Below the pieces are notes generated by a model. That model saw nothing but the letters and a program-made list of their open reading frames with translations, ran no database searches and was not told the DNA's origin. From contig CAXXOA010000002.1 in the NCBI GenBank assembly GCA_963666275.2, forward strand, positions 1,120,001 to 1,184,000: a stretch of DNA of 64,000 nt, read 5' to 3'. The position numbers and the translations under genes are program-made. Every line of letters starts with the position of its first letter. The stretch's first letter is position 1. This DNA is from Oceanispirochaeta sp. Lineage in GTDB: Bacteria > Spirochaetota > Spirochaetia > DSM-2461. Shown in pieces: positions 42,383 through 60,568 of this stretch.

Positions 42383-42447
42383 GGCTAAGATCCAAATAGG
42401 CTGCGCAGCGGCCCGGCCAGGGGCTGATTGGGCCTTGCAGGTTCTAC
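42383..42447 (-). repeat. Degenerate attC-like remnant (attC7)
   Basis: GTAGAAC overlaps the stop of the 42444 gene; plus-strand AAATAGGCTGCGCAGCGGCCCGGC resembles the arm at 46323/53758; R' reads CTTAGCC. Confidence 0.45.
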
Positions 42448-45023: not shown

Positions 45024-45074
45024 ACTATCTCCATTTGAATAAGGGGATTCCACATAACGGATTATTTTTCTAGC

Positions 45075-45104
45075 CTGGAGGTTAAAAGCCTCCGGCTACC
45101 CGAT
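45075..45104 (+). repeat. 30-nt group II intron 3' remnant (DVI)
   Basis: Identical to 58011-58040; ACATAAC core at 45052-45058. Confidence 0.9.
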
Positions 45105-46193
45105 AAAAATGGAATTCTTTAGCGTTTCCAATAATTCTACATTGATATATATTTTTTCTCTTCCAATTTTGTATTCACTTAAAATACCAATATCTTGTAA
45201 TTGACTTAAATACCTTGAAGCTGCCTTTCTTTCTACTCCAAGAACTTTTGTTAAAAACTCTATTTTACAATATGGGTGTACAAATAATTCTTCGATCAGT
45301 TCTTTTGAATAAATCTTGGGTAATTCATTTCTGACTCTTTCGATTGTTTTATCTAATAATTCTTTTATCTTAAGAACTTTATTTATAGTTTCTTTAGCGA
45401 CTATTTCTATACCTTTCAGAATATAGATTATCCATTCTTCCCAATTTTCATTACTTGTAACACTGCGAAGTAATCTGTAATATTCTGCTTTATTCTTTAT
45501 GATATATGAGCTTAGATATAAAATTGGTATATCAAGATAATTTTTTAGTATCAGATATAAGATATTAATAATTCTACCCGTTCTTCCATTTCCGTCATAA
45601 AATGGATGAATTGATTCAAATTGATAATGAATTATCGCCATTTTTGCTAATGAATCATCAGCATCATTTAAATACTCAACGGTGTTACTAAATAGCTTAT
45701 TTATGACACCTTCACTTTGGGGAGGAGTATATACAACTTCTCCCGTTTTATCATTTACCAATGAATTTCCTGGTGTTTTTCTGATTCCGGCATCATTTTT
45801 TTGTAATTCGATCTGTATTTCAATAATATCATTAACAGAAAGAAATCCTTTTTCAACTATTTTATTAAAGCCCGAATATAGTGCTTCTCTATAATATATT
45901 ACTTCTTTAGTAGCAGAATCATATTTTTTCTGGTTTCCACTTATCGCTTTATATAGATCATCTTGTGTTGTTATTATATTTTCAATTTCCGAGCTATCTT
46001 TTGCTTCCTGGAGAATTATTGCATTAATTAAAATTGATTGATTGGGGATTATATTAGCAATACCTTTTAATTCTGCTATTGCTGACCGTGCTTTATTTTC
46101 TTGTTTTAATATTTTTATCGTTTCTATTTTGTTTGTGTCAGGCGGAAGTAGAGGGAGGTCATTATATGGCTTCGTTGGTATGAAATTTCTCAT
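45096..46193 (-). CDS. Fic-family protein with C-terminal HTH (cassette 6)
   Basis: QEAKDSSEIEN; HPFYDGNGRTGR. Confidence 0.92.
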   Translation of the reverse strand: MRNFIPTKPYNDLPLLPPDTNKIETIKILKQENKARSAIAELKGIANIIPNQSILINAIILQEAKDSSEIENIITTQDDLYKAISGNQKKYDSATKEVIYYREALYSGFNKIVEKGFLSVNDIIEIQIELQKNDAGIRKTPGNSLVNDKTGEVVYTPPQSEGVINKLFSNTVEYLNDADDSLAKMAIIHYQFESIHPFYDGNGRTGRIINILYLILKNYLDIPILYLSSYIIKNKAEYYRLLRSVTSNENWEEWIIYILKGIEIVAKETINKVLKIKELLDKTIERVRNELPKIYSKELIEELFVHPYCKIEFLTKVLGVERKAASRYLSQLQDIGILSEYKIGREKIYINVELLETLKNSIFIG

Positions 46194-46313
46194 ATGTCCC
46201 ATTATCGCATTATTTGGTACGCAATTCAATATTGTGTACCATTTATTTAATTTTTGGTACACATCTAAACTATATGTCCTTATTTTTAAGAAAATATCCC
46301 ATTTCCATTTTCC

Positions 46314-46478
46314 ATTTAACACCAAAATATGCTGCGCAGCGGCCTGGCTTGCCAGGTATAGGCGCTTTTCTTGCCCCTTTATTCTAAACAACTATTTCTT
46401 ATTTGGGAATTATTTATGGTTAACAGAAGATTTTCTGGTATGAAATATGACAATGGGAAAGACTGATGCATTAGCTTG
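46314..46478 (-). repeat. Long, degenerate attC (attC5)
   Basis: GTTAAAT core at 46320-46314; 46 bp identical to 53758-53803; both ends resemble attC 49806-49979. Confidence 0.6.
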
Positions 46479-46545
46479 ATACTTATTAAGGGCTCCCCGG
46501 AGAATGATAAAATATAAGAGTCATTTACCATCAAGGAGGTGTCCT

Positions 46546-46640
46546 ATGACATTCTATACTAAGCAGCATAAGTATTACTGCGGAATAGATCTCCATACCA
46601 AAGTGATGTATCTCTGTATTATGGACCAAACAGGTGAAAT
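46546..46640 (+). pseudogene. IS110-family transposase N-terminal fragment
   Basis: AAGGAGG RBS; MTFYTKQHKYYCGIDLHTKVMYLCIMDQTGEI. Confidence 0.75.
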
Positions 46641-46911
46641 ACTGGGAATTCCGAAAGATTTTGCCATTATCACCGGTGCCAGTTGTAAATCCTATTGGCA
46701 TCTCTCCAAGTCTTACGCTACCAATGCAGCTATGTCCAATAAATGGCTGGAAGAGCAGGGATTGGTCAATATCAAATATCTGTGGTGTAAAGCCCAGGGA
46801 TATATCTGATCAAATCAGGATTTCGTTTGCTCCATGGAGTGAACCGCCCCGTGCGGACCCGCATGCGGGGTGGTGTGGGGGCTGGAGGTTTAAAGCCTCC
46901 GGCTACCCGAT
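46641..46911 (+). repeat. 271-nt 3' fragment of the group II intron (RT C-terminus, DV, DVI)
   Basis: Matches 57770-58040 with two substitutions seen. Confidence 0.95.
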
Positions 46912-46918
46912 TTATGTT

Positions 46919-48016
46919 TCATTCATTATCCAGCAAAGCATTCAATAATGAGAAGTTAAGTTGCACTGCTTTTGAATCAATGCTTAAATAATTATTTATA
47001 TTGGCCCAAACGTTATCTAAATTGTTCAAATCTGTATCCGTAAATGTGATGTAATTTATGTTATATTTTGACCAATACTTTTTATGTTTAATCATTTCCT
47101 TTTCATATTGTAGGTAAGCATCTTTTTCAAGTTCTGTTAAATTCTTATTTTTTCCTTTTAGTTTCATATGTGTTGATGATGGTGAGATTTCAAAACCAAT
47201 TTTATCCATACTCCATGGATTAATTATAAGAAAATCTAATCTATATTTATGCTTTTTCTTAAATGGATCATATCTTAGTTCGGGAATTAACACTGGAATT
47301 GATTCTGGAGTACCATGATTTTTTACATAATCTATATATTTTGAGTAAATTGATATTTGATATTTTGATCCAGTTCTTCTTACAAGATCATACAGAAATT
47401 GCAAAAGGTCGACCAATGTAGAAAATGTTCTCTGATCATTTTGATTCATATAACAAAATCCTGTTTCCAATGCATGACCAAGAGTCCAGTATGGTTGCTT
47501 GAAATGTCTTATTTCGGATTTATCATTTTCCCAAGAATCATCTACAAATCGAGGAGAAATCAAAAAGCCAAACTCATCAGAATTATTTCCAAACCAATAT
47601 TCGCTTTCTTTTATAGTTGGTTTTACTTTATAATGTTCATCATAATGTTTAAGAAATGAACACTCCAAGAAATTCGATAAGTATTTCTTGAAATAGGGAA
47701 ACTTTTCACCAGAAATGATATCATAGAGGACTTTATGGGGAAAAATTAAGTCTGAATCTAGTGTATTTAGTTTTTCAGTGAGGCCTTCTATCCATAAGTT
47801 CATATATTCTGTAGGTGACTTTATAACTTCATGTTTTTGGTCAATGTATACACCAGCTTTAGAACCAATGTATGCATTCAAGGATTTCTCATTATCCATA
47901 TATGAAAACAATTTATTGGTCTCTATAAGAACAAAAGGTAGTAAATCTCTTCTTTGCTCTTTTAATTTTTTGATTCTTTTATTTCTTGCTGTTTTATTTG
48001 GATCTCTTTTTCCCAT
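46919..48016 (-). CDS. Hypothetical protein with C-terminal Vsr/DUF559-like nuclease motif (cassette 5)
   Basis: IPELRY...YRLDFLII...GFEISPSSTH. Confidence 0.6.
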   Translation of the reverse strand: MGKRDPNKTARNKRIKKLKEQRRDLLPFVLIETNKLFSYMDNEKSLNAYIGSKAGVYIDQKHEVIKSPTEYMNLWIEGLTEKLNTLDSDLIFPHKVLYDIISGEKFPYFKKYLSNFLECSFLKHYDEHYKVKPTIKESEYWFGNNSDEFGFLISPRFVDDSWENDKSEIRHFKQPYWTLGHALETGFCYMNQNDQRTFSTLVDLLQFLYDLVRRTGSKYQISIYSKYIDYVKNHGTPESIPVLIPELRYDPFKKKHKYRLDFLIINPWSMDKIGFEISPSSTHMKLKGKNKNLTELEKDAYLQYEKEMIKHKKYWSKYNINYITFTDTDLNNLDNVWANINNYLSIDSKAVQLNFSLLNALLDNE

Positions 48017-48048
48017 TTAGTTAGCTTCCTATATATATAATATACTTT

Positions 48049-49788
48049 TTAGTTATCAATGATTTCTGATATATACTTAATGATCGGTACTTCAAGAATT
48101 TCCTTTCCTTCAAGATTTGGTTGTAGAATTGTTTTCCAGTAGATGTTTGCATTATATGGCTTACCATGACTGGTTGATTCTGAAAATCTCAATTCTTCAC
48201 TAATATTTTCACTCATATGGGCAGGTTCAAATGTAGTATCATGAATTCTAAACAATCCTGCATTTGGAACATCTTTTGTCTTATCTAATTCAAATTGTTT
48301 GGAAATTGAACCTTGGATATTAGTATTGAAGGTCGGGTTCATTCTATCATCAAAATCAATAATTGATGTTCCATCTGTATCACAAATGACGTTATATTTT
48401 ATTGAGAATTGTGAAAATATTTTTTGATAAAAAGGTATATTTGTTACTGATCCACAGTTTAAGACAAATAAATCCTTTGCAGGATTCTTTTCTTGTAAAA
48501 AAGCTCTGATTATTATTTCTTCTGTAGGACCTTCAATGAGTATAACTTCATCAGCATAAAATGATTCGCATATATGTGGATTGAATCTTAGGATTTCATA
48601 CATTTCTTGTTTTAGCTCATAATCAGTTTTTATATCCTTAGCTTTTTTGAGAAATTTGTCATTAATCTGATAAACTTTCGTATTCTCATTTTCTTTAGAT
48701 AGACGAATGATAGATGATTTGGGTTGTGAAATATCAATCATTTGTGGAGAATGTGATGCACATAGAACTTGATATGGTAATTCATCTTTACTAACTTGAT
48801 AAATTAGATCTCTAAGTTCTTTTAGAATCCTTGGATAAAGAAACAATTCAGGTTCTTCGAATAAAACCATGTAGTCTTTTCTTCCAGGACTTCTTACAAA
48901 TTCCTCAGCAATGTCTCTCATCAGTAGTAGTGTAAAAATAGCAGCTCTTATAGTTCCATGGCCAATGGAAGAGATTGAAGTTGGCACATTAACATCAATT
49001 TCACCAGAATCACTTATTCTATTAAACTCTATATCAAATTCTTTACCTAACTTATTCTCAGTCCACATTACTCTAGATTTCTTATCAATTATGGAGAGAC
49101 TAGTTTCTGGAAAAAGCTTTTTGAAGTAACTGTTTATTGATTCTTGATAAGTATTAATCGTTTCAGGTTTGTACATTTTATCCTGTAGTTCAGCAATTTT
49201 TTCTCTAGCTGCTTTTAATTCAGCTAATTCAGACAACTTAAGTTTACTTTCCGCAATTGATTTCAAAATTTCATTTAATATACTTTTTACTTCTTCTTCA
49301 TTTGGCATTGCCTTTATAAAGATAGGTTTGGGCATACATGATTGAAATACCCTATGTAATCCTATCGAAGCATAACCAATATCAGCCCAATCATTTGCTG
49401 CGGGTTCCCAAGTAATAGCTTTTTTTGTAATTTTTTTATCTTTTTGAAATATTGATTTAATACGTAAGGAGTTTCCATTGATAAGATACTTTTTAAAACT
49501 CTCTTTCTGCTTCGGTGCCGCTTCTTGAATTTTTGCAATATCAATATCTTCTAATAAAACCTCAATTTCAAACTGCATTATGAGGTTATCATTCCTTTTG
49601 AAATAATCATCTTTATTTGGCGTACAGTCATTGTAAAAAAATTGATACGCTTGGAGAAATGTTGATTTGCCAGCATTATTCTGACCAAATATAAATAAAG
49701 TGTTTGTATCTTCAAAAATAATTCTATTGTTTTCTAAACCACCAGAAATTCCTCTAAAATTATCTATTGCAAAATAACTAATCTTCAT
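48049..49788 (-). CDS. OLD-family ABC ATPase-TOPRIM nuclease (cassette 5)
   Basis: IDNFRGI, GQNNAGKST, IGHG, FEEPELFLYP, ASHSP, ILIEGPTE, ICDTD; AGGAG RBS. Confidence 0.88.
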   Translation of the reverse strand: MKISYFAIDNFRGISGGLENNRIIFEDTNTLFIFGQNNAGKSTFLQAYQFFYNDCTPNKDDYFKRNDNLIMQFEIEVLLEDIDIAKIQEAAPKQKESFKKYLINGNSLRIKSIFQKDKKITKKAITWEPAANDWADIGYASIGLHRVFQSCMPKPIFIKAMPNEEEVKSILNEILKSIAESKLKLSELAELKAAREKIAELQDKMYKPETINTYQESINSYFKKLFPETSLSIIDKKSRVMWTENKLGKEFDIEFNRISDSGEIDVNVPTSISSIGHGTIRAAIFTLLLMRDIAEEFVRSPGRKDYMVLFEEPELFLYPRILKELRDLIYQVSKDELPYQVLCASHSPQMIDISQPKSSIIRLSKENENTKVYQINDKFLKKAKDIKTDYELKQEMYEILRFNPHICESFYADEVILIEGPTEEIIIRAFLQEKNPAKDLFVLNCGSVTNIPFYQKIFSQFSIKYNVICDTDGTSIIDFDDRMNPTFNTNIQGSISKQFELDKTKDVPNAGLFRIHDTTFEPAHMSENISEELRFSESTSHGKPYNANIYWKTILQPNLEGKEILEVPIIKYISEIIDN

Positions 49789-49805
49789 TATTTCTCCTTT
49801 TGTAA

Positions 49806-49979
49806 ACATAACTATCTGATCACCTGCACCCCGGCCTGGCCGCAGGACAGGTATTGGCGTTCTTCTTGCCAACATGGTAAAACATCTCTACTATATTGAG
49901 AAGCGATTATTTACTATTGGGTTGGAATATCTGCAAGAAGCATGACAATAGGGGAGACAGGTGCATCAGCATGTTATGT
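49806..49979 (-). repeat. Intact attC site (attC4, 174 bp)
   Basis: Minus strand ACATAAC..TGATGCACCTG...CAGGTGATCA..GTTATGT; one extra base in L''. Confidence 0.85.
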
Positions 49980-50075
49980 GAGCGTCCTTGCAGCAGTTTT
50001 GCCCCGAGCGACGTATCACTTTCTAATGTTAATAATCAGATTTCTCTCAGCAATTGCTATAAGTTGGGTATAAGT

Positions 50076-50525
50076 TTGAAGATTAAAAATATCATCACAA
50101 TTGTTACGGTATTAATATTACTCTCGATTTTTGGATATAAAGAAATTCAGAAGAAAATTGCTCTAAAGTATATACAGACAAGATCTTTCCAAGTAAGCAC
50201 AATTAGTGATCTATCTGGGAATTTTAAAAGAATAGATAATGATTACTTTTCGGATTGGATAAATTTTATACTGAAGGAATCAGAAATAAGTGAAGATGCT
50301 CCTGAGAAAGGAGAATTGCATCCTTTTGTAATAGTTCATTTCACCACGAATGATAAATACTCTGTTTTTGTAAAAGTCGATACTAAACGAGATAAAGTTT
50401 ACTCACACATTTATAAATCCAGAGGTGCACCTGTCTTGAATCTAGTATATTCGGAACAAAACGAGGAACATACATATGAAATGTGGAGTCAAATGATTAA
50501 TGAGATTCGAAATTTTGATAATTAA
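50076..50525 (+). CDS. Hypothetical membrane-anchored protein (cassette 4, inverted; start uncertain)
   Basis: N-terminal TM segment; AT-rich. Confidence 0.55.
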   Translation: MKIKNIITIVTVLILLSIFGYKEIQKKIALKYIQTRSFQVSTISDLSGNFKRIDNDYFSDWINFILKESEISEDAPEKGELHPFVIVHFTTNDKYSVFVKVDTKRDKVYSHIYKSRGAPVLNLVYSEQNEEHTYEMWSQMINEIRNFDN

Positions 50526-50822
50526 ATTATGCTGCCAATAATGTCCGTTCTGTCTATTCATAGATTCTATGATGAGCTACTGTTAACTTAACTTTTTCAG
50601 CCAAGGGGTTATTCAATGGTGACAGAATATGACATTTCTAATATTCTACCTAGACTCACAGGGGCATTAAAAAAGATTTATGATAAAGTAAATCAAGCAT
50701 TAATAGCTGCCAAGTTCTCATAATATCTATTCTTTTTAGTGGAGATAAAGTAACCGTCAATTTCTTATGCCCTACGATGTAATCTGAATTCCATGCACAA
50801 TTTCTACAAGGAGATTTACTGC

Positions 50823-51131
50823 ATGGAAAAAAAAGACATTTGGAAACGAAAAATCAATGAATGGGAGAAGAGCAGTTTAAACCGAACAGAGTTCTGCCTG
50901 AAGAATAGCATCCCCGTTTCAACCTTCGACTATTGGAGAATGAAAATCCGCAAGGAATCAGCAGTAGAGAAGGAAAAAGGGCTTGTGAGGATTCCAGTAG
51001 TTTTGAAGGCGTCTACAGGAAGCCCATTTTCAATCGAATACCCCTCCGGGCATAAGATCAATATTCCATCAGATTACGATTCTCATTCGCTGATTCGTCT
51101 TGTCGCCGATTTAAAAGAGATCCTAAAATGA
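50823..51131 (+). CDS. tnpA: IS66 TnpA
   Basis: WEKSSLNRTEFC...STFDYWR. Confidence 0.85.
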   Translation: MEKKDIWKRKINEWEKSSLNRTEFCLKNSIPVSTFDYWRMKIRKESAVEKEKGLVRIPVVLKASTGSPFSIEYPSGHKINIPSDYDSHSLIRLVADLKEILK

Positions 51132-51475
51132 TTCCGGATTTTACCAGCATTCAAATCTACGTCAGACCTGGTATCACCGATATGCGGAAACAGGTCAATG
51201 GTTTATCCATTATCACCCAGGAGGAAATGGAACTTAACCCTGGTTCCGGTTGCCTTTTCCTCTTTTGCAGCCGGGACCGCAAGCTGATAAAGTGCATTTA
51301 CTGGGATCGCAACGGATTCTGTCTCTGGCAGAAGCGCCTGGAAAAAGGAAAATACCCCTGGCCGGATTCAGAAGAGCAAGCCAGGCAGATATCCCAGGAA
51401 CAGTTGAAAATGCTCCTGGAAGGTATTGACTTCTGGCATACTCATCAAACTCTCAGTTATGAAGAGATTGTCTAA
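51128..51475 (+). CDS. tnpB: IS66 TnpB accessory protein
   Basis: TDMRKQVNGL, LFLFC, YWDRNGFCLWQKRLEKG. Confidence 0.93.
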   Translation: MIPDFTSIQIYVRPGITDMRKQVNGLSIITQEEMELNPGSGCLFLFCSRDRKLIKCIYWDRNGFCLWQKRLEKGKYPWPDSEEQARQISQEQLKMLLEGIDFWHTHQTLSYEEIV

Positions 51476-51516
51476 ACCATCTTCCCAATGGAATTCAAAC
51501 ATGTTAGAATTTTCTC

Positions 51517-53058
51517 ATGGACTTGGCGGAGATACAAAAATCACCAGAGAAAGCACTTGAACTCATCCAGAGTATGTCTGGTCAGATTGAGCAATTAACA
51601 GAAGAACTCCGCCTGGCTCTTCATCGCAAGTTTGGACGTTCCAGCGAGAAAATCGATCCTAACCAGAAGGAACTGTTTGAAGAAGAGGCTCCTTCTGAGG
51701 AAGAATTCGCAGCAGATGATCAGATAACAGTTCCCGCACATAGCCGAACAAAGGCAGGACGAAAGCCTTTGGACAGCAACATCCCCCGGGAGGACATCAT
51801 CCATGACATTCCCGAAGAGGAAAAGATCTGCGGCTGCGGGCATCAACTGGATAAGATTGATGAGATTGTCAGTGAAAGGCTTCAGCATATCCCCGAGCAG
51901 ATATACGTGGAGCGTCATATCCGTTACAAGTATGCCTGCCGGAACTGTGAGGGTTCCGGTGATGAAGACAAACCGGTTTTCAGAGTAGCCCCGGCGGCTC
52001 CTTCCATCCTTCCCGGTAGTATCGTTACTTCGGGGCTTTTAGCCTTTATCTTGGTGAATAAGTTCTGTGATCATCTGCCGTTTTACAGGCAGGAGAAGCG
52101 CTTTGAGCGTATCGGCGCTCATATCAGCCGCCAAGACATGTCCAATTGGACAAATAAATCAGCAGAAAGGCTCCAATTCCTTATGGATATGTTTAGGAAG
52201 AAGATCAAAGAAGGCCCTGTTATCCAGATGGATGAAACCACAGTGCAGGTTCTGGGAGAAGAAAACCGTCCGGACACCTCAAAATCCTACATGTGGCTTG
52301 CCCGGGGAGGGCCTCCGGACTCACCCCTTGTGATCTACGACTACCATGAAACAAGAAGTTCTCAGCATGCCAAGGCGTTTTTGGAGGGATATTCGGGATA
52401 TCTCCAGACTGACGGCTATCAGGCTTATGAAACGGCACTGGACGGCAACGAAGATATCATTCATGTCGGTTGTCTGGCACATGCCCGTCGGAAATTTGTA
52501 GATGCCGCGAAGGCTTCAAAGAAAGCCGGAAGCGCTCAAATTGCTGTAAAGAAAATCAGAGATATTTACCGGATTGAAAGTAATCTCCGGGATGAGCATT
52601 TGGATGATATGAAGTTCTTGAACAGGAGAAAAGAGCTGGTTCAGCCGCTTCTGGATGACCTCAAATCCTGGCTGGATGACAAGGCTGAAAAGGTTAGGCC
52701 GTCTACGGCGACGGGAAAAGCGATAGCCTATATCTTGGGCCAGTGGGAGAAAATCGTCCGTTTTATTGAGTCTCCCTACCTGACGCCGGATAACAATGCC
52801 GCTGAACGGGCGATTAAACCTTTTGTGGTTGGTCGGAAAAACTGGCTGTTCTCCGGATCTCCGAGGGGTGCTAAATCCAGTAGTCTCTTTTACTCTTTGA
52901 TTGAGACGGCGAAAGTGAATGATCTGAATCCCTATGGATATCTATGGTGGATATTCGATCAGGTCGCAGTCATGGAAGATGATTTTGACAAAGAAAAACT
53001 GCTTCCCTGGAACTGTGACCGGGAAGCTATTCAGAAAAGGGCTTTCAAGGGCCTGTAG
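51517..53058 (+). CDS. tnpC: IS66 TnpC DDE transposase
   Basis: KFGRSSE, MDET, QTDGY, CLAHARRKF, DNNAAERAIK. Confidence 0.95.
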   Translation: MDLAEIQKSPEKALELIQSMSGQIEQLTEELRLALHRKFGRSSEKIDPNQKELFEEEAPSEEEFAADDQITVPAHSRTKAGRKPLDSNIPREDIIHDIPEEEKICGCGHQLDKIDEIVSERLQHIPEQIYVERHIRYKYACRNCEGSGDEDKPVFRVAPAAPSILPGSIVTSGLLAFILVNKFCDHLPFYRQEKRFERIGAHISRQDMSNWTNKSAERLQFLMDMFRKKIKEGPVIQMDETTVQVLGEENRPDTSKSYMWLARGGPPDSPLVIYDYHETRSSQHAKAFLEGYSGYLQTDGYQAYETALDGNEDIIHVGCLAHARRKFVDAAKASKKAGSAQIAVKKIRDIYRIESNLRDEHLDDMKFLNRRKELVQPLLDDLKSWLDDKAEKVRPSTATGKAIAYILGQWEKIVRFIESPYLTPDNNAAERAIKPFVVGRKNWLFSGSPRGAKSSSLFYSLIETAKVNDLNPYGYLWWIFDQVAVMEDDFDKEKLLPWNCDREAIQKRAFKGL

Positions 53059-53081
53059 TTTTGACGGTTACGAGATAAATT

Positions 53082-53615
53082 ATGAAAAAAACTTTCTATT
53101 CTATTTTTTTCATTTTCATCATATTGATTCAATGTTTTAGCCAGGACTCTTCTGTAATTGATACACTAAAATCAGAATGGAGCAAGTATAATTATGAAGA
53201 AGAGGCTACTATTTGTAATCTTGAAATGAAGAGTATTGGGCAATATATATTCAGTGAAGGTTCTTTTAATATTAATCTGACAGTACAAGCTAATAAAAAA
53301 ATCTATTTCGAACTTAACAGATCTTGGGATCAAGAATTTTTAGAGGAATTTCCAGATGTACCAGTTCCTTACCTTTCTTTTTATGAGTTAAAGGAACCGT
53401 TTGAATCTGTACCGCCGTATATCTTAAATCAATATATTAAGGTTCGTCATAAGAATGTTAATTTTGAAAGTCCTGAGTATTTTGAGTTACAAAAGGATTT
53501 TCTTGATTACGTGACTCATTACTCAGGAACAGTCTTAAGAAAAAGTGAAATAGACTCATCCTTGTATATATATTATCCTCCCATTGATGAATTTATTCTG
53601 ATATGGGCTCCATAA
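53082..53615 (+). CDS. Hypothetical secreted protein (cassette 4, inverted)
   Basis: Signal peptide; AT-rich. Confidence 0.7.
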   Translation: MKKTFYSIFFIFIILIQCFSQDSSVIDTLKSEWSKYNYEEEATICNLEMKSIGQYIFSEGSFNINLTVQANKKIYFELNRSWDQEFLEEFPDVPVPYLSFYELKEPFESVPPYILNQYIKVRHKNVNFESPEYFELQKDFLDYVTHYSGTVLRKSEIDSSLYIYYPPIDEFILIWAP

Positions 53616-53748
53616 ATGATGTCGATTTTGTCGGAAATATAATTACTTAACACAGCAGCGAAATTACACTGCCGATAATCGCCTATTCTATCACTTTAGA
53701 AATTTTTATTAACAGAATTATACTGAAAATTACGTATATTTTGAGTCC

Positions 53749-53876
53749 ACATAACATCAAAATATGCTGCGCAGCGGCCTGGCTTGCCAGGTATAGGCGC
53801 TTTGCTTCCGACCCGTGCGGACCCGCATGCTCATTTGGTGTGGGGGCTGGAGGTTTAAAGCCTCCGGCTACCCGAT
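53749..53876 (-). repeat. Chimeric site: attC R' arm (53749-53805) fused to intron DV-DVI remnant (~53808-53876)
   Basis: ACATAAC core and 46-bp arm, then CCCGTGCGGACCCGCATGC...GGCTACCCGAT. Confidence 0.85.
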
Positions 53877-54761
53877 TTATGTGGATTTTTCAGGAATATA
53901 TTTCAACAATAATCCAAAATTTAACAGTCCAATTATTATTTGTAATATCACAATACCTCTTATTACCGAATTATTAGGTATTATATCTCCATATCCCGTT
54001 GTTGTACTTGTAACAAAACTAAAATACTGAAAATCAATAAAATTTAAATGATTTGATCTCTGGGAATGGATTTCTATCCATAATTCTGGAAACCGAGCTC
54101 GTAGATTTCGAAAATCCTTTTCTTTAGAATCAAAAATCTGCCGATGATTATTTACTTCTTTTTCTAACGCATTAATTTCTGATAATAATTCTGGGTCACC
54201 AAAAGAGGATAAATTTTTCAAAGCAAAATCAAAAATATTAATTCTTTCATTTGCTAATTCTAGTTTTAGTTCGGCAACTGCAACATCATGTTTGGCTATA
54301 TCTAGTACATTCTCTAAATTTAGCTTTTCATTTTGCAATATATTTATGTTACCTTCTATTTCAGATGTTCTTAATGTAACAAAAGAATCAATACCATCAT
54401 TTACTGTTTGGTTGTACCTAGTGCTTAATTCTTTCAACTCATTCTCGCTTTCAACTATTAATGCATCTAATTCTTCAATTTCGATAATTAACTTATTAAT
54501 TTCATCAATATATAGATTTATTTCGGATGAATATTCTAATAAATCTTTTTCTGAGATTTCCTTAGTTGAAAAATTATTCTCATAGGAATCTCGAATCATA
54601 TTTAAAGGATTCAGATTTATCTCATAATTATATAAAAAATTACACGGGTCATATTTGAAACAAGCAAAATATATTATTCCAAAAATGAACTGCATAATTA
54701 CAAAAGCCAATAAAAAGTTAATCCACTTATTCTGTTTATAAAATTCAGACATAGTTCTCAT
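53877..54761 (-). CDS. 2TM potassium-channel-domain protein with coiled-coil insertion (cassette 3)
   Basis: YFSFVTSTTTGYGDIIP filter; N- and C-terminal TM helices. Confidence 0.8.
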   Translation of the reverse strand: MRTMSEFYKQNKWINFLLAFVIMQFIFGIIYFACFKYDPCNFLYNYEINLNPLNMIRDSYENNFSTKEISEKDLLEYSSEINLYIDEINKLIIEIEELDALIVESENELKELSTRYNQTVNDGIDSFVTLRTSEIEGNINILQNEKLNLENVLDIAKHDVAVAELKLELANERINIFDFALKNLSSFGDPELLSEINALEKEVNNHRQIFDSKEKDFRNLRARFPELWIEIHSQRSNHLNFIDFQYFSFVTSTTTGYGDIIPNNSVIRGIVILQIIIGLLNFGLLLKYIPEKST

Positions 54762-54775
54762 ATTTTATCCTTCTA

Positions 54776-55951
54776 CTATTCACTAACATTAAAAAAAGAG
54801 GAAATAAGAATAACGTCCTCATCACTTAGAATATCGTTATGCTCTAAAAACACAGCCTCATCCAAAATATGAAAAACGGAAATGAATGCTTCATCATATT
54901 TTTGATTCATTGGAGCATCCGATTTTTGAAAATCATCAAAGTCACAGCTTTGCCATGACGTTATTGTTCTCTTAGTCGTTCTATTAGTAAAATACATCCT
55001 TAACCCGTTAATGGTATAGAATTTTGTAATCTTACTACATGTTTGAATAGATTTTATTGCACTACATTCTTTCTTATTAAGAAGATGTTCTTGTCTAAGA
55101 ATTTCATTTATTTTTGTTGTATCAATATATTGATTTTTTATTACGTAATTTATTGCTTCTGATTGTTTTTCAAAATCCATAAAATAGACATAATGTTGAA
55201 TATACAGCTCTGTATTTTTGTAATTCTTGATATGTTCTTCACCAATATATTTTGAAATAAAATTATCTGAATAAGCAGATGTTACTGTATCTCCAGTTCT
55301 ATAATATATCTCTTCATCATTAAGTAGTATTGGAAAAGGATCGATTGATAATCTCATAATTGCAACTGTTCCAATACAATCCTTTAAATACGATTCAAAC
55401 TTATTTGTAAATATATCATTATCTAGATAATTATGGTTAATAGAGTGATTTCTACTCGAATAAAATTTATCAAATCCTTGTTTATGGACGAACTTATTTA
55501 TTTTTTTCTTGGTATTGTCTATATGATCGAAAAAGAGTTGTAATTTCTCTTTTATATCTTTAAATACAGTTTCATTCGCTTCTAAGTATTTTTGCATTTG
55601 CTGATACATAGGAAAATGTTCTTCTGATTTCCATTTCTCAAGTTCATTGTTACTTTTTTGATCTTGATTTTCAATTATATACATCATAGTCATAGAGACT
55701 TCAATTGATTGTCTAAGTGAATAGTAGGCACAATCAAAATAACCTAATTCAAACAATGTAATAGCATTTTTTATCAGGTTACATGCTTCAACTATGAATG
55801 TATTTGCAATCCATGCATCTACTCGACCAGTATGACTTTGTTCAATATTTGCTATATCAATTATATAGTCTTTCTTAGACGCGAGTTCAATAGGTATTAA
55901 ATGTCCACTTTCTCTAAATTTCGTATAATCCATTCCATACCTTTTTTCCAC
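54776..55951 (-). CDS. Hypothetical protein, possibly HEPN-like (cassette 3; start uncertain)
   Basis: AYYSLRQSIE ... INKFVH. Confidence 0.6.
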   Translation of the reverse strand: MEKRYGMDYTKFRESGHLIPIELASKKDYIIDIANIEQSHTGRVDAWIANTFIVEACNLIKNAITLFELGYFDCAYYSLRQSIEVSMTMMYIIENQDQKSNNELEKWKSEEHFPMYQQMQKYLEANETVFKDIKEKLQLFFDHIDNTKKKINKFVHKQGFDKFYSSRNHSINHNYLDNDIFTNKFESYLKDCIGTVAIMRLSIDPFPILLNDEEIYYRTGDTVTSAYSDNFISKYIGEEHIKNYKNTELYIQHYVYFMDFEKQSEAINYVIKNQYIDTTKINEILRQEHLLNKKECSAIKSIQTCSKITKFYTINGLRMYFTNRTTKRTITSWQSCDFDDFQKSDAPMNQKYDEAFISVFHILDEAVFLEHNDILSDEDVILISSFFNVSE

Positions 55952-56051
55952 ATAACGTCGATTTCACCTGTTCGTCGTAAATGGCGTAATTACTGCAAGC
56001 GAAGCTGAATAGCAGTAATTATGACATAGACGAATCTGGTGCAAATCCTTG
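55950..56051 (-). repeat. attC2, split by the intron (rest at 58041-58046)
   Basis: Removing the intron gives ATATAA|CAAGGATTTGCACC...GGTGAAATCGACGTTATGT. Confidence 0.9.
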
Positions 56052-58040
56052 GTACGCCCGACATGGCAATAAACTTATGAGGTGAAAGTCCTCTACAGCT
56101 ACCCACGTATAGTAAACATGCTATACCAACTGTTAGCCGACGGCAAGGGCAATTCCGTGAGGAATTGTCTGGAGGAAGCCTGAGTGCAAAACCGGGAGCC
56201 CATGCACAAGAATGTGATAGAAGGCCCAGTTCCGGAGGCGAGTCAGCCAATGATGACGATGCCCCGTGGGTGAGGGATAGGGTAAATCACAGGGTTGTCC
56301 GGGGAATGTTTCTTGTCTTATTCGGGGAGATCTGTCTGCAAGGCGGTAACGTCGGTTTGACCGTGAGAATCCGGAGGATACCGGAGCAACAAGTCCAGGC
56401 CTATCAGGGGGTGACACTCTGATAAGGAGCCGTTTATACGGAACACAAAGAAGTCGTCACAGCGCTTCAAACCGGATGATACAGCGTCAGCAGGAGTAAT
56501 TCTACTGATAAGCGGACAGAAGTCAGCAGAAGGCATAGTAGCTAACGCCCGGAGTAATGTCCGGTTCATGGTGAAGGCCTGAACATTTCACAAGGAGGAG
56601 CCTTATGGTTCTCAAAGGAACAATTTCAGCTTATGCCGGAATCACTTTTGGCGGATCTTGGAGAAACCAGCCTTGAACGAATCTATGATGGCTTTGATTC
56701 TGTCGCAAGATAACATGCGTGATGCCTGGAAACGGGTCAAACGCAACGGTGGAAGTCCGGGGATTGATGATATATCAATCTCTCAATTTCCTGATTACCT
56801 CAAAAATCGGTGGCCAAGAATCAAACGAGCTTTGCTCAATGGGTACTATGTACCTTCTCCGGTGCTGAGGGTGGAAATCCCGAAGAAATCCGGAGGAAAA
56901 CGGATGCTGGGAATCCCGACAGTTCTAGACAGGGTTATCCAGCAAGCTATTTCACAGGTTCTGAACCCTATATTTGATCCGGATTTTTCGGAGTATAGCT
57001 ATGGTTTCAGACCGGGAAGATCGGCTCACGGAGCAGTGAAACAGGTAAACCAATATGTCAAATCCGGGTATAGATACGCCGTGGATCTGGACTTGGAAAA
57101 GTTCTTTGATACAGTGAATCATGATATACTGATGCATTTTGTGGCTGTAAAAGTCCGGGACAAATTTGTTCTCAGACTCATCGGCCGTTACCTGAGAGCC
57201 GGTATTCAGTTGGACAATGGAAAAGTGATTCCTACAGCAATCGGCACACCCCAAGGCGGGCCTTTATCACCTTTGCTTTCCAATATCCTCCTTGATCGGT
57301 TGGATATGGAACTGGAAAGAAGAAATGTACGGTTTGCACGGTATGCAGATGACACTATCCTTTTAACGAAGAGATTGTGTGATGCTAGGAAGATCCTAAA
57401 GGAAGTTTCAATATTTCTGGTAAGGAAATTGAAATTGGTAGTGAATCAGGGAAAAACGAAAGTTGCAAAGATAACGGAATGCAGCTTCCTGGGGTTCACA
57501 TTCAAGGGTAAGAAGATTCGCTGGACTGAGTCGTCTTTTGAGGATTTTCGGTATCAACTGAAATATCTGACAAGGCGTTCCTGGGGTGTTTCCATGGAAT
57601 ACAGAATCGGGAAACTCAATGAGTATATCCGGGGCTGGATGAACTACTATGGGATCTCCCAATATTACAGCCCTCTACAGAACCTTGATGACTGGCTCCG
57701 TAGGAGGATTCGCATGTGCTACTGGAAACAGTGGCGATATCCCAGAACGAAAGTCAGGAAACTGATGGAACTGGGAATTCCGAAAGATTTTGCCATTATC
57801 ACCGGTGCCAGTAGTAAATCCTATTGGCATCTCTCCAAGTCTTACGCTACCAATGCAGCTATGTCCAATAAATGGCTGGAAGAGCAGGGATTGGTCAATA
57901 TCAAATATCTGTGGTGTAAAGCCCAGGGATATATCTGATCAAATCAGGATTTCGTTTGCTCCATGGAGTGAACCGCCCCGTGCGGACCCGCATGCGGGGT
58001 GGTGTGGGGGCTGGAGGTTAAAAGCCTCCGGCTACCCGAT
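56052..58040 (+). mobile_element. Group II intron, class IIC-attC type
   Basis: 5' GTACGCCCGACATGG; DV GAACCGCCCCGTGCGGACCCGCATGCGGGGTGGTG; 3' CTACCCGAT; inserted at TTG|TTA opposite to the cassettes. Confidence 0.92.
56658..57938 (+). CDS. ltrA: Group II intron reverse transcriptase/maturase, no endonuclease domain
   Basis: RMLGIPTVLDR, SYGFRPGRS, GTPQGGPLSP, RYADD, RGWMNYY. Confidence 0.95.
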   Translation: MEKPALNESMMALILSQDNMRDAWKRVKRNGGSPGIDDISISQFPDYLKNRWPRIKRALLNGYYVPSPVLRVEIPKKSGGKRMLGIPTVLDRVIQQAISQVLNPIFDPDFSEYSYGFRPGRSAHGAVKQVNQYVKSGYRYAVDLDLEKFFDTVNHDILMHFVAVKVRDKFVLRLIGRYLRAGIQLDNGKVIPTAIGTPQGGPLSPLLSNILLDRLDMELERRNVRFARYADDTILLTKRLCDARKILKEVSIFLVRKLKLVVNQGKTKVAKITECSFLGFTFKGKKIRWTESSFEDFRYQLKYLTRRSWGVSMEYRIGKLNEYIRGWMNYYGISQYYSPLQNLDDWLRRRIRMCYWKQWRYPRTKVRKLMELGIPKDFAIITGASSKSYWHLSKSYATNAAMSNKWLEEQGLVNIKYLWCKAQGYI

Positions 58041-58550
58041 TTATATTTTATTTCTTTTATACCTATATCTAATCGATGAAGGAGTAAATCCCATTTTTTC
58101 ATAAAATCTAATCGCATCACTGTTGTTGGCAAATACAGATAAACGTATGTCATCTACACCTTTTTCATTGATCCAATCTAAGCCAAACTCGAATAATCTT
58201 TTTCCTATACCTCGATTTCTGAAATTTTTGGTGATAATAATATTTTCAATTGATGCATATTTTATTGGTATAAGATTTGTTATATTTGGTGTATCTAAAA
58301 TTTTAATTATAATTAATCCGAGGATTTCGCAATCTTTTTTGGCTATGAAATATGCATAATTAGACAGGTTGATATCTTTCTCAAGAGTTTCATCAGTTCG
58401 GCTATTATTTATTCCTGAGAAAATATCAGGATGAAGTAGATGGTGATAATAATCTCCTTCATCCAGCAGTTTCTTTATACCTTGTAAATCTTTTAATGAA
58501 GCGTTGTTTATTACTATTTCTTTGTTCTCTTCTACAATTGAACTCATCAA
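58041..58550 (-). CDS. GNAT acetyltransferase (cassette 2)
   Basis: FRNRGIGKRL; NSDAIRFYEKMGF. Confidence 0.9.
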   Translation of the reverse strand: MMSSIVEENKEIVINNASLKDLQGIKKLLDEGDYYHHLLHPDIFSGINNSRTDETLEKDINLSNYAYFIAKKDCEILGLIIIKILDTPNITNLIPIKYASIENIIITKNFRNRGIGKRLFEFGLDWINEKGVDDIRLSVFANNSDAIRFYEKMGFTPSSIRYRYKRNKI

Positions 58551-58969: not shown

Positions 58970-59078
58970 ATATAACGCCAAAATCACCTGCAGACCGTTA
59001 AGCTGGCGCAAATACTGCCGCGAAGCGAAAAGCAGTATTTGTGACAGTAGGGCTGTCAGGTGCATTTTCTGGTTCTAT
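58970..59078 (-). repeat. Intact attC site (attC1, 109 bp)
   Basis: Minus strand ATAGAAC..AAAATGCACCTG...CAGGTGATTTT..GTTATAT. Confidence 0.9.
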
Positions 59079-59970: not shown

Positions 59971-60104
59971 ATAGAACATTACTTATTATACTGTTCAGTA
60001 TAATTCAGCCCTTACTGCAGTGATAACTTCAAAATCCACAGTTATCTAGACATTTCTGCAGTATAACTACTCATATAATCCAGTTATACAGAACAGTATA
60101 ATAA
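59971..60104 (-). other. Candidate attI-like site at the array head
   Basis: G|TTCTAT at 59977-59971 complements ATAGAAC of attC1; no attC hairpin upstream, but palindromes and repeats. Confidence 0.5.
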
Positions 60105-60568
60105 ACCCATACCACCTTTTTATCCTTTGCTTTTTTAAAAAACCTTCCCAATAGGGATAGTAAGGGAGCCGCAGGCTGTGTTCGTAAGAACACCGGAGCC
60201 CTGCATAGCCCGGCCCCCGGCAGGGGGATTTGCCATCTATCGGAACAATGGATTCATGACTCACCCGGAGGTATCATATTTTCCGGAAATTATCACTCGA
60301 CACAGCAGAAAAACAGATTGGATCACCCCTGCCGCTCGAAACAGAACCGTTACAGCTTTTGAAATGCACCAATCTTCATAAGGGTACCCCGAACCACCGG
60401 ACTTTCCTATACTAACTTTAGTTAGCATGTAAACTATATAAATGATTAAAATATATGAAGATAGGAATTTTCCCCGATTTCCTGACCGGGAAAAACCGCC
60501 CGGAAATATATACAGCCGCAAGAACCGGGCATACAATATTTCAAGTAATCCAACCCAAGGAGATATCC

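Follow-up and report, generated by a model that had tools for sequence, protein, structure and literature searches.

The 64,000-nt stretch analysed here (G000:C2:1120001-1184000 of Oceanispirochaeta sp., hereafter the window) contains an array of integron gene cassettes at 42.4-60.1 kb, read on the minus strand, in which a full-length group IIC-attC intron stands together with three shorter copies of its 3' end. We consider it probable that these remnants result from repeated deletion after insertion, whereby the 3' end is shielded by the abutting cassette gene. The window has seven attC or attC-like sites, of which four carry intron sequence (a first-pass annotation, made by a model from the letters, had put it at four of about seven) and two are intact. 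Genome-wide we count 18 intron 3' ends and 11 5' ends, all located in four cassette arrays, with seven orphan 3' pieces and no orphan 5' piece.

Full-length intron and its target

The intact copy and its site comprise the following features:

56052-58040, plus strand: full-length group IIC-attC intron (1989 nt), antisense to the cassette genes, inserted TTG/TTA in the attC bottom strand
56658-57938, plus strand: intron reverse transcriptase (RT)/maturase, 426 aa, YADD motif, TTG start in this copy; Pfam RVT_1 and GIIM
55951-56051, plus strand: attC that holds the full intron, all of it present from R' to TTG though interrupted; fold z -4.8

The attC-targeting IIC intron named in the first-pass annotation is confirmed by its RT, its domains and its insertion into the R'' bottom strand. 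The protein holds RVT_1 and GIIM only (thus no endonuclease domain, as in the IIC type) and its best PDB match is the GsI-IIC RT (E 5e-124). Rfam matches cover D1-D4, and the last 73 nt fold normally into a short IIC domain V with a CGC triad and a domain VI with a bulged A. Insertion is antisense, with 11/11 5' ends following an attC arm and 18/18 3' ends lying within arrays.

According to passages of PMC7923331, TTGT/T is the target of the majority of IIC-attC members. Here the 5' exons end in TTG in 9/11 copies, in ATG in one and in TTA in the divergent one, and the loop of exon-binding site 1 (EBS1) is CAAU where a class 1 integron intron has ACAA (read in one of two such introns). The target is a one-base register variant, with EBS1 covarying with the shifted site. 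The RT is 50-52% identical to the RTs of class 1 integron introns; 11 of the 12 plasmid matches listed are enterobacterial or Pseudomonas RTs, and the two that were opened lie in class 1 integrons. One collection locus labelled Spirochaetaceae is 74% identical to the window intron. Near-identical copies at different attC sites suggest that the intron is active in homing and splicing, and the 18 insertion sites, together with the observed target register, point to homing into attC bottom strands.

A second attC intron (73% identical) is located in the main integron at G000:C1:1046145-1048118, in the attC of a GNAT cassette related to window 58041-58550.

Remnants at three cassette ends

When the full intron is aligned to the genome with BLAST, three further regions of the window are found, all on the plus strand: 46641-46911 (271 nt, 99.3% identity), 53808-53876 (69 nt, 89.9%) and 45075-45104 (30 nt, 100%). 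They and their flanks are resolved as follows:

46314-46478, plus strand: attC complete to TTG, separated from its own R'' by a composite of insertion sequence (IS) and intron
46479-46643, plus strand: left end and first 32 codons of an IS1111-type element (IS110 family), inserted at the TTG/ site of the attC; fused to the intron remnant with a 3-nt overlap (46641-46643)
46641-46911, plus strand: intron 3' remnant of 271 nt, covering the end of the RT gene and domains V and VI; 99.3% identity with the full copy
53750-53803, plus strand: left arm only of a long-type attC, remainder deleted; 93.5% identical to 46311-46372, intact version at G000:C3:279384
53804-53811, plus strand: left of the 65-nt remnant and adjoining it, the tail of a palindromic insertion element of ~42 nt; matches the end of a whole element in domain V at G000:C1:1032411-1032449
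53812-53876, plus strand: 65-nt intron 3' remnant, with broken domain V (GGGG replaced by TCATT) and domain VI
45053-45074, plus strand: R' and first bases of a deleted attC
45075-45104, plus strand: 30-nt intron remnant (domain VI and 3' end), the antisense strand of which supplies the Fic stop codon
45096-46391, minus strand: SoFic-like cassette gene, ending ...KNSIFIG*; the G007 homologue ends ...KDSI* in R''

The 3' flanks read TTATGT (271-nt piece), TTATGT (65-nt piece), AAAAAT (30-nt piece) and TTATAT (full copy). Each matches the start of its own cassette, so that the four behave as an R''/R' pair should. Alignments and flanks thereby bear out the original observation of a full intron with three same-orientation 3' copies at cassette ends. 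That the truncated copies disrupt their attC also holds, since the attC is broken at each remnant, although at the DNA level the full intron likewise interrupts its own.

The clearest junction is that of the 271-nt piece. To its left the attC is complete to TTG and is followed by 165 nt of the IS1111-type element, fused at codon 32-33 over ACT. An intact copy of this element (about G000:C1:1293790-1295355, minus strand, also within an attC) is identical to the stub in 32/32 aa and diverges from the window exactly after the shared ACT; the junction is, judged by this comparison, a deletion joining IS to intron. The element itself has a DEDD transposase (PF01548 match), a 10-bp perfect subterminal repeat and about 420 nt of non-coding sequence after the gene, and occupies a fixed attC position (2/2 copies after TTG in long-type attCs).

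The second piece had been read as domains V and VI at about 53808-53876. The intron tail is indeed present, but only 65 nt belong to the intron, 8 nt of another element precede them, and domain V is mutated and no longer folds. The 8-nt tail also matches a longer tail at C1:1034446, and the whole element is hosted by the remnant at C1:1032295. An element tail at the junction of a remnant with broken domain V implies that the final deletion postdates the element insertion. The TCATT change resembles the end of the right arm of the long attC. Moreover, one domain VI base is common to the 271-nt and 65-nt pieces and missing from all 10 close full-length copies, hence these pieces are not cut-down copies of the neighbouring intron. 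A repeat shared by 46311-46372 and 53746-53807 was considered as an IS end and rejected: it is the left arm of the long attC type.

Left of the 30-nt piece only R' and 16 nt are found. The closest homologous Fic cassette (G007, 76% identical) keeps TTG/TTAAAT and its gene stops there; the window gene reads three codons further, with its stop inside the remnant. The AAAAAT flank is thus a mutated TTAAAT.

Genome-wide census and direction of decay

The terminal 11-mer of the intron occurs four times in the window against 0.026 expected by base composition, and 17 times exactly in the genome against 2.1 expected. All 17 copies lie in cassette arrays (about 2% of the genome) and all 18 3' ends at cassette R'' sites, which is the enrichment at attC R'' that the first-pass annotation had suggested to look for. 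A metagenome scan for the last 29 nt of the intron returned 0 stretches.

Relatives were drawn from a small sample of 38 family genomes (a search at the level of the order returned the same 38). In this genome and seven relatives together, 21 remnants retain the 3' end against three 5'-only pieces (G004 twice, G023 once; nominal p 2.8e-4), a count that omits IS-split introns, hits at contig edges (G016) and a terminator-type IIC 5' end (G027). Three internal pieces have neither end. Not every short hit is a remnant: a 113-nt apparent 3' fragment on C3 belongs to a full intron interrupted by IS66, and two pieces of the same sort in G009 belong to full introns interrupted by IS elements; all three were rejected.

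Several further properties are shared by the truncated copies. A complete attC directly abuts none of the seven remnants in this genome and none of the 14 truncated pieces in relatives (by a crude motif; one weak match ended 73 nt upstream). The ~42-nt element or its tail is found in or at 8 of the 21 3'-retaining remnants, and a 704-nt intron piece directly abuts the end of an IS (IS3 family, judging by the appearance of its open reading frame, ORF). Internal intron deletions are present in G003, G004 and G019. Remnants are shifted towards the distal, older array ends (permutation p=0.0003 for five arrays, 0.0008 with an alternative coding and 0.024 for this genome alone). The distance from stop codon to intron 3' end ranges from -9 to 107 nt with a median of 9 (17/18 ends, the IS-interrupted one omitted); on the intron 5' side the attC measures about 87-169 nt.

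At L085:10877-11110 (G004) a mini-intron of ~230 nt has kept 212 nt from the start of the intron but no more than ~17 nt from its end; both of its junctions are intact.

Deletion after insertion and its alternatives

We envisage the following course. An active IIC-attC intron would home into the attC bottom strand at TTG/TTA. Inserted copies would then decay as DNA: they receive IS1111, IS66, IS3-like and ~42-nt hairpin elements, internally or alongside, and are cut down by deletions whose ends meet at short overlaps, at IS ends or between two copies of the hairpin element (both steps can be followed in several copies). The 3' end would usually outlast the rest because it abuts the stop codon of the gene, whereas the 5' end faces dispensable attC and leader. 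Remnants may in this way pile up at the old distal array end, with the attC made unusable for the integrase. What favours this course is the lack of intact attC abutting any remnant, the element tails, the distal gradient, and the closeness of the stop codon on one side against the attC buffer on the other.

A number of points weigh against it. Initial truncation by aborted cDNA synthesis, followed by deletion, would give the same end state, and the 30-nt junction does not discriminate between mechanisms. Random deletion should leave more copies with both ends than the few that are seen. Shared ancestry and the relatedness of the genomes mean that the remnants cannot be counted as independent, and 5' ends are more easily missed than the conserved 3' domains; the p values thus look stronger than they are. 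Shielding by the stop codon would be the selection step. The 3'-retention bias is strong but not absolute, which argues against a universal rule.

The first-pass annotation had left the choice between later deletion and abortive reverse transcription. Deletion directly explains the 271- and 65-nt pieces. With abortive retrohoming the 3' end would attach, reverse transcription would stop early and the cDNA would be joined upstream over a short overlap, at the loss of part of the attC. This directly accounts for the 3' bias; incomplete reverse transcription is named as a possible fragment source in passages of PMC2504315 and PMC7923331, and the active intron matches the 271- and 30-nt pieces at 99-100% identity. 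Nevertheless we regard this route as unlikely, given that a complete attC abuts 0/7 remnants here and 0/14 pieces in relatives (again by the crude motif), that junctions are occupied by IS ends and element tails, and that neither the distal gradient nor the internal deletions are predicted by it.

It might also be argued that remnants are retained because domain VI works, be it as a terminator, as an RNA-stabilising hairpin or as part of a rebuilt attC-like fold. All three remnants contain the whole domain VI, the Fic stop codon comes from the 30-nt piece, and at the scarred site 53745-53890 R' and R'' pair over 9 bp with domain VI extruded (z -3.1). At its crossover base, however, the refolded site has a C.T mismatch, and a normal L box is missing. 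The terminator role that had been suggested for the hairpin found no support: terminator-like sites number 11 against 9.0 +/- 3.2 in shuffles with none at a remnant, and no U-run follows the hairpin on the gene strand (two remnants folded). Elsewhere the domain VI stem is mutated in other remnants, and half of it is gone in a 24-nt remnant. Retention for function is accordingly improbable in our view.

Assembly artefacts of a repeated element are the least credible source of the junctions: the intron is present in 11 long copies, and among the contig pieces listed no contig bridges the left junctions of the 271-nt and 65-nt remnants, but remnants hold private variants absent from full copies, the toxin-antitoxin cassette (below) has its remnant in three genomes, and the 30-nt remnant is spanned by a single contig in 2/3 runs with no differences. 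The contigs come from three runs of a single sample, which may be the source itself and so would give no independent check; between them they reach all 30 bins of the window.

Exchange between intron copies

The same mutated domain V is found on four different cassettes in three genomes: that of the ion channel in the window, a toxin-antitoxin cassette on C1 and its left-end neighbour, a cassette in G011, and once more the toxin-antitoxin cassette in G009. The G011 cassette is 96% identical to a G000 cassette that has an intact attC. Since a dead ribozyme should not home, the variant probably moved between cassettes by recombination or by RT template switching. Gene conversion among copies of group II introns is described in passages of PMC3522654. 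Mosaicism is clear in the ten close copies that have both ends, where 1311 of 2850 informative site pairs fail the four-gamete test. Exchange of sequence between copies is therefore observed, and either route could have spread the dead variant. For the proposal that intron homology serves shuffling independent of IntI, the mosaic copies and the shared dead domain V give indirect support.

In three genomes from two genera the same toxin-antitoxin cassette bears a 3' remnant of the intron (91% and 70% identity; G000:C1:1034514, L077:13333 and L087:8651), suggesting an old scar on a cassette that may be hard to lose.

A ~42-nt hairpin element

The element met at the remnant junctions is 40-43 nt long and folds into two covarying stems around a conserved internal loop. 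In 30 hand-picked copies 94.6% of cells are paired with 57 double changes, a value reached by 0/500 shuffles, and the outer pair is concordant in 122/131 copies (the search pattern fixed part of the sequence). The genome has 37 copies at E<0.02. Although 12/37 lie in intron DNA (0.45% of the genome), these derive from only four insertion sites; one of them is an in-frame insertion that adds 14 residues to the RT and is common to five copies at different attC sites. Other copies lie within palindromic intergenic repeats, ahead of a tRNA gene, inside a fragment of a tRNA end and close to rRNA genes (the rRNA context being read from sequence).

The exact pattern occurs in 17/38 family genomes with 0 control matches. 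At least 121 collection loci contain the element, the best 80 of 121 being mostly from Bacillota and Spirochaetota with one from Bacteroidota. As only 2/121 loci match the window intron, the element is not intron-specific, and that reading (12/37 copies in intron DNA but four sites) was rejected.

Comparison of filled and empty sites shows 41-42 nt added just after a CC-containing 4-5-mer, with the element ending in a similar motif; an imperfect duplication reads equally well. Its resemblance to IS200/IS605-type ends presupposes what we take to be the insertion rules of that group. None of the seven Y1 (HUH) transposase genes of this genome is located at a listed element copy, and none was found among 72 ORFs at 23 loci in relatives. 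Rfam gave no match. Literature word searches, passages of PMC3733652, PMC3184786, PMC5737381 and bioRxiv 10.64898/2026.09.22.753630, and the searched supplement files of PMC3733652 did not contain the element, bearing in mind that absence at sequence level is hard to show by words; the catalogue of miniature inverted-repeat transposable elements of PMC11602168 lay outside the comparison.

The element may also seed deletions. The intron copy at C1:1038005 lost bases 252-480 (229 nt between two insertion sites), leaving one hybrid element with both stems mismatched. In other copies elements are inserted at each of these end-points, and recombination between two elements is the probable origin of the loss.

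Taken further, this would amount to a three-layer parasitism, in which an undescribed ~42-nt element of at least two phyla, mobilised in trans, inserts into structured DNA including the intron, hitchhikes on its homing, kills it through domain V and seeds deletions, after which the dead tails recombine between cassettes. We offer this as a tentative picture, which at present we would sooner doubt than adopt.

Element copies are located, among others, at G000:C2:623284-623365, at C1:1038215, 1038323 and 1038728, and in L092-L212; they often stand just before ribosome-binding sites and in places form tandem runs of up to six. Intron copies have two further insertions, one of 101 nt with a 9-nt duplication and a second that is a 24-nt hairpin; the sites listed for them are G000:C3:187455, 269704 and 273680 (intron base 267) and C1:1038005 and C3:269704 (intron base about 170).

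Array setting

The remaining features of the array are:

59971-60110, plus strand: putative attI-like array head with no integrase beside it; homologous to the intI-adjacent region G000:C1:1063330-1063470 and to four other array heads
58970-59078, plus strand: intact attC, fold z -5.6
49807-49979, plus strand: intact attC
50750-53072, plus strand: IS66 element with 8-bp target duplication, within a cassette

A single integron integrase exceeds the cut-off in the genome, on contig C1, and none lies beside the window array, which therefore qualifies as a cluster of attC sites without neighbouring intI (CALIN), with an attI-like head present. Such heads without integrase occur at window 59971-60110 and at G000:C3:205220, C3:207595, C3:279770 and C1:1288085. 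The window array and the four other places look like attI-headed arrays that may be served in trans by the C1 integrase.

The cassette genes encode a PIN/HicB pair, DUF952, GNAT, DUF5677, an ion channel, an OLD-type ATPase and the SoFic protein. In the two-gene cassette at 46919-49875 the first gene codes for an OLD-family ATPase-TOPRIM protein (PADLOC Old, E 1e-64) and the second for a protein of 365 aa that matches nothing in Pfam or PADLOC; the two are a possible defence pair. The cassette beginning at 53755 has as its homologue the first cassette of the C3 array headed at 205220-207700, a head that is interrupted by IS66. At 42385-42447 a degenerate attC-like site ends an 869-aa BNR-repeat gene, the cassette of which is probably the oldest of the array.

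Relation to known systems

Truncated IIC-attC introns and fused cassettes are already known. Passages of PMC7923331 describe IIC-attC introns, their occurrence in integrase-less arrays, 5'-truncated copies and the cassette-formation hypothesis, those of PMC3001079 outward promoters, and those of PMC2504315 and PMC4424553 the fragmentation of bacterial introns through incomplete reverse transcription or IS activity. With introns of the S.ma.I2 and Kl.pn.I1 type (as covered in parts of PMC3001079 and PMC7923331) the window intron shares the IIC RT type, the antisense R'' bottom-strand insertion and the terminal motifs. It differs in inserting one base earlier (TTG/TTA against TTGT/T, read in two class 1 integron introns, with EBS1 CAAU against ACAA) and in its heavy load of 18 sites in four arrays of one genome. 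Here it is mostly the 5' end that decays away; for other introns, passages of PMC4496777 give loss of the 3' terminus as the usual trend.

The IS1111-type element resembles the attC-targeting IS1111 elements of PMC11187229 (as far as its passages go) in its DEDD transposase, subterminal inverted repeats, long downstream non-coding region and the position of both copies in attC; the window copy differs as a 165-nt stub fused to an intron tail, and it uses the same bond as the intron. As for fused cassettes with truncated attC, treated in passages of PMC4670013, loss of the attC should block single excision, so that neighbours move only together. That scars lock cassettes or fuse neighbours, as had been proposed, thus follows from known integron biochemistry, although no co-moved scarred block was found in the relatives; the loss here is tied to intron and IS decay.

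The ~42-nt element is similar to repetitive extragenic palindromic (REP) and non-autonomous IS200/IS605-type elements, as passages of PMC3733652 present them, in its short hairpin with conserved internal loop, its dispersed and tandem copies, its in-frame gene insertion and an apparent lack of an exact target duplication at sites with an empty allele. It differs in that it is not tagged by GTAG or CGTC, matches nothing in Rfam, has no flanking Y1 transposase among the loci searched and occurs in Spirochaetota, Bacillota and one Bacteroidota record.

Overall, the remnants are mostly explained by known decay processes; what sets this case apart is that the target register is shifted and that the steps are recorded with unusual clarity. 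The newest part appears to be the cross-phylum mini-element, which we could match to no described family, together with the shared dead intron tail. Empty and filled alleles together show how an attC-homing intron erodes the reshuffling of an integron, and a testable explanation of why decay runs in one direction lies in where the neighbouring stop codon stands. The remnant junctions have brought to light a small, widespread insertion element, and the genome offers sequence evidence of a rare kind on the hypothesis that cassettes can swap parts by recombining through introns. If the three-layer parasitism were true, nature would have supplied evidence for the route, already proposed, by which recombination between introns rejoins attC sites and genes with no integrase involved.

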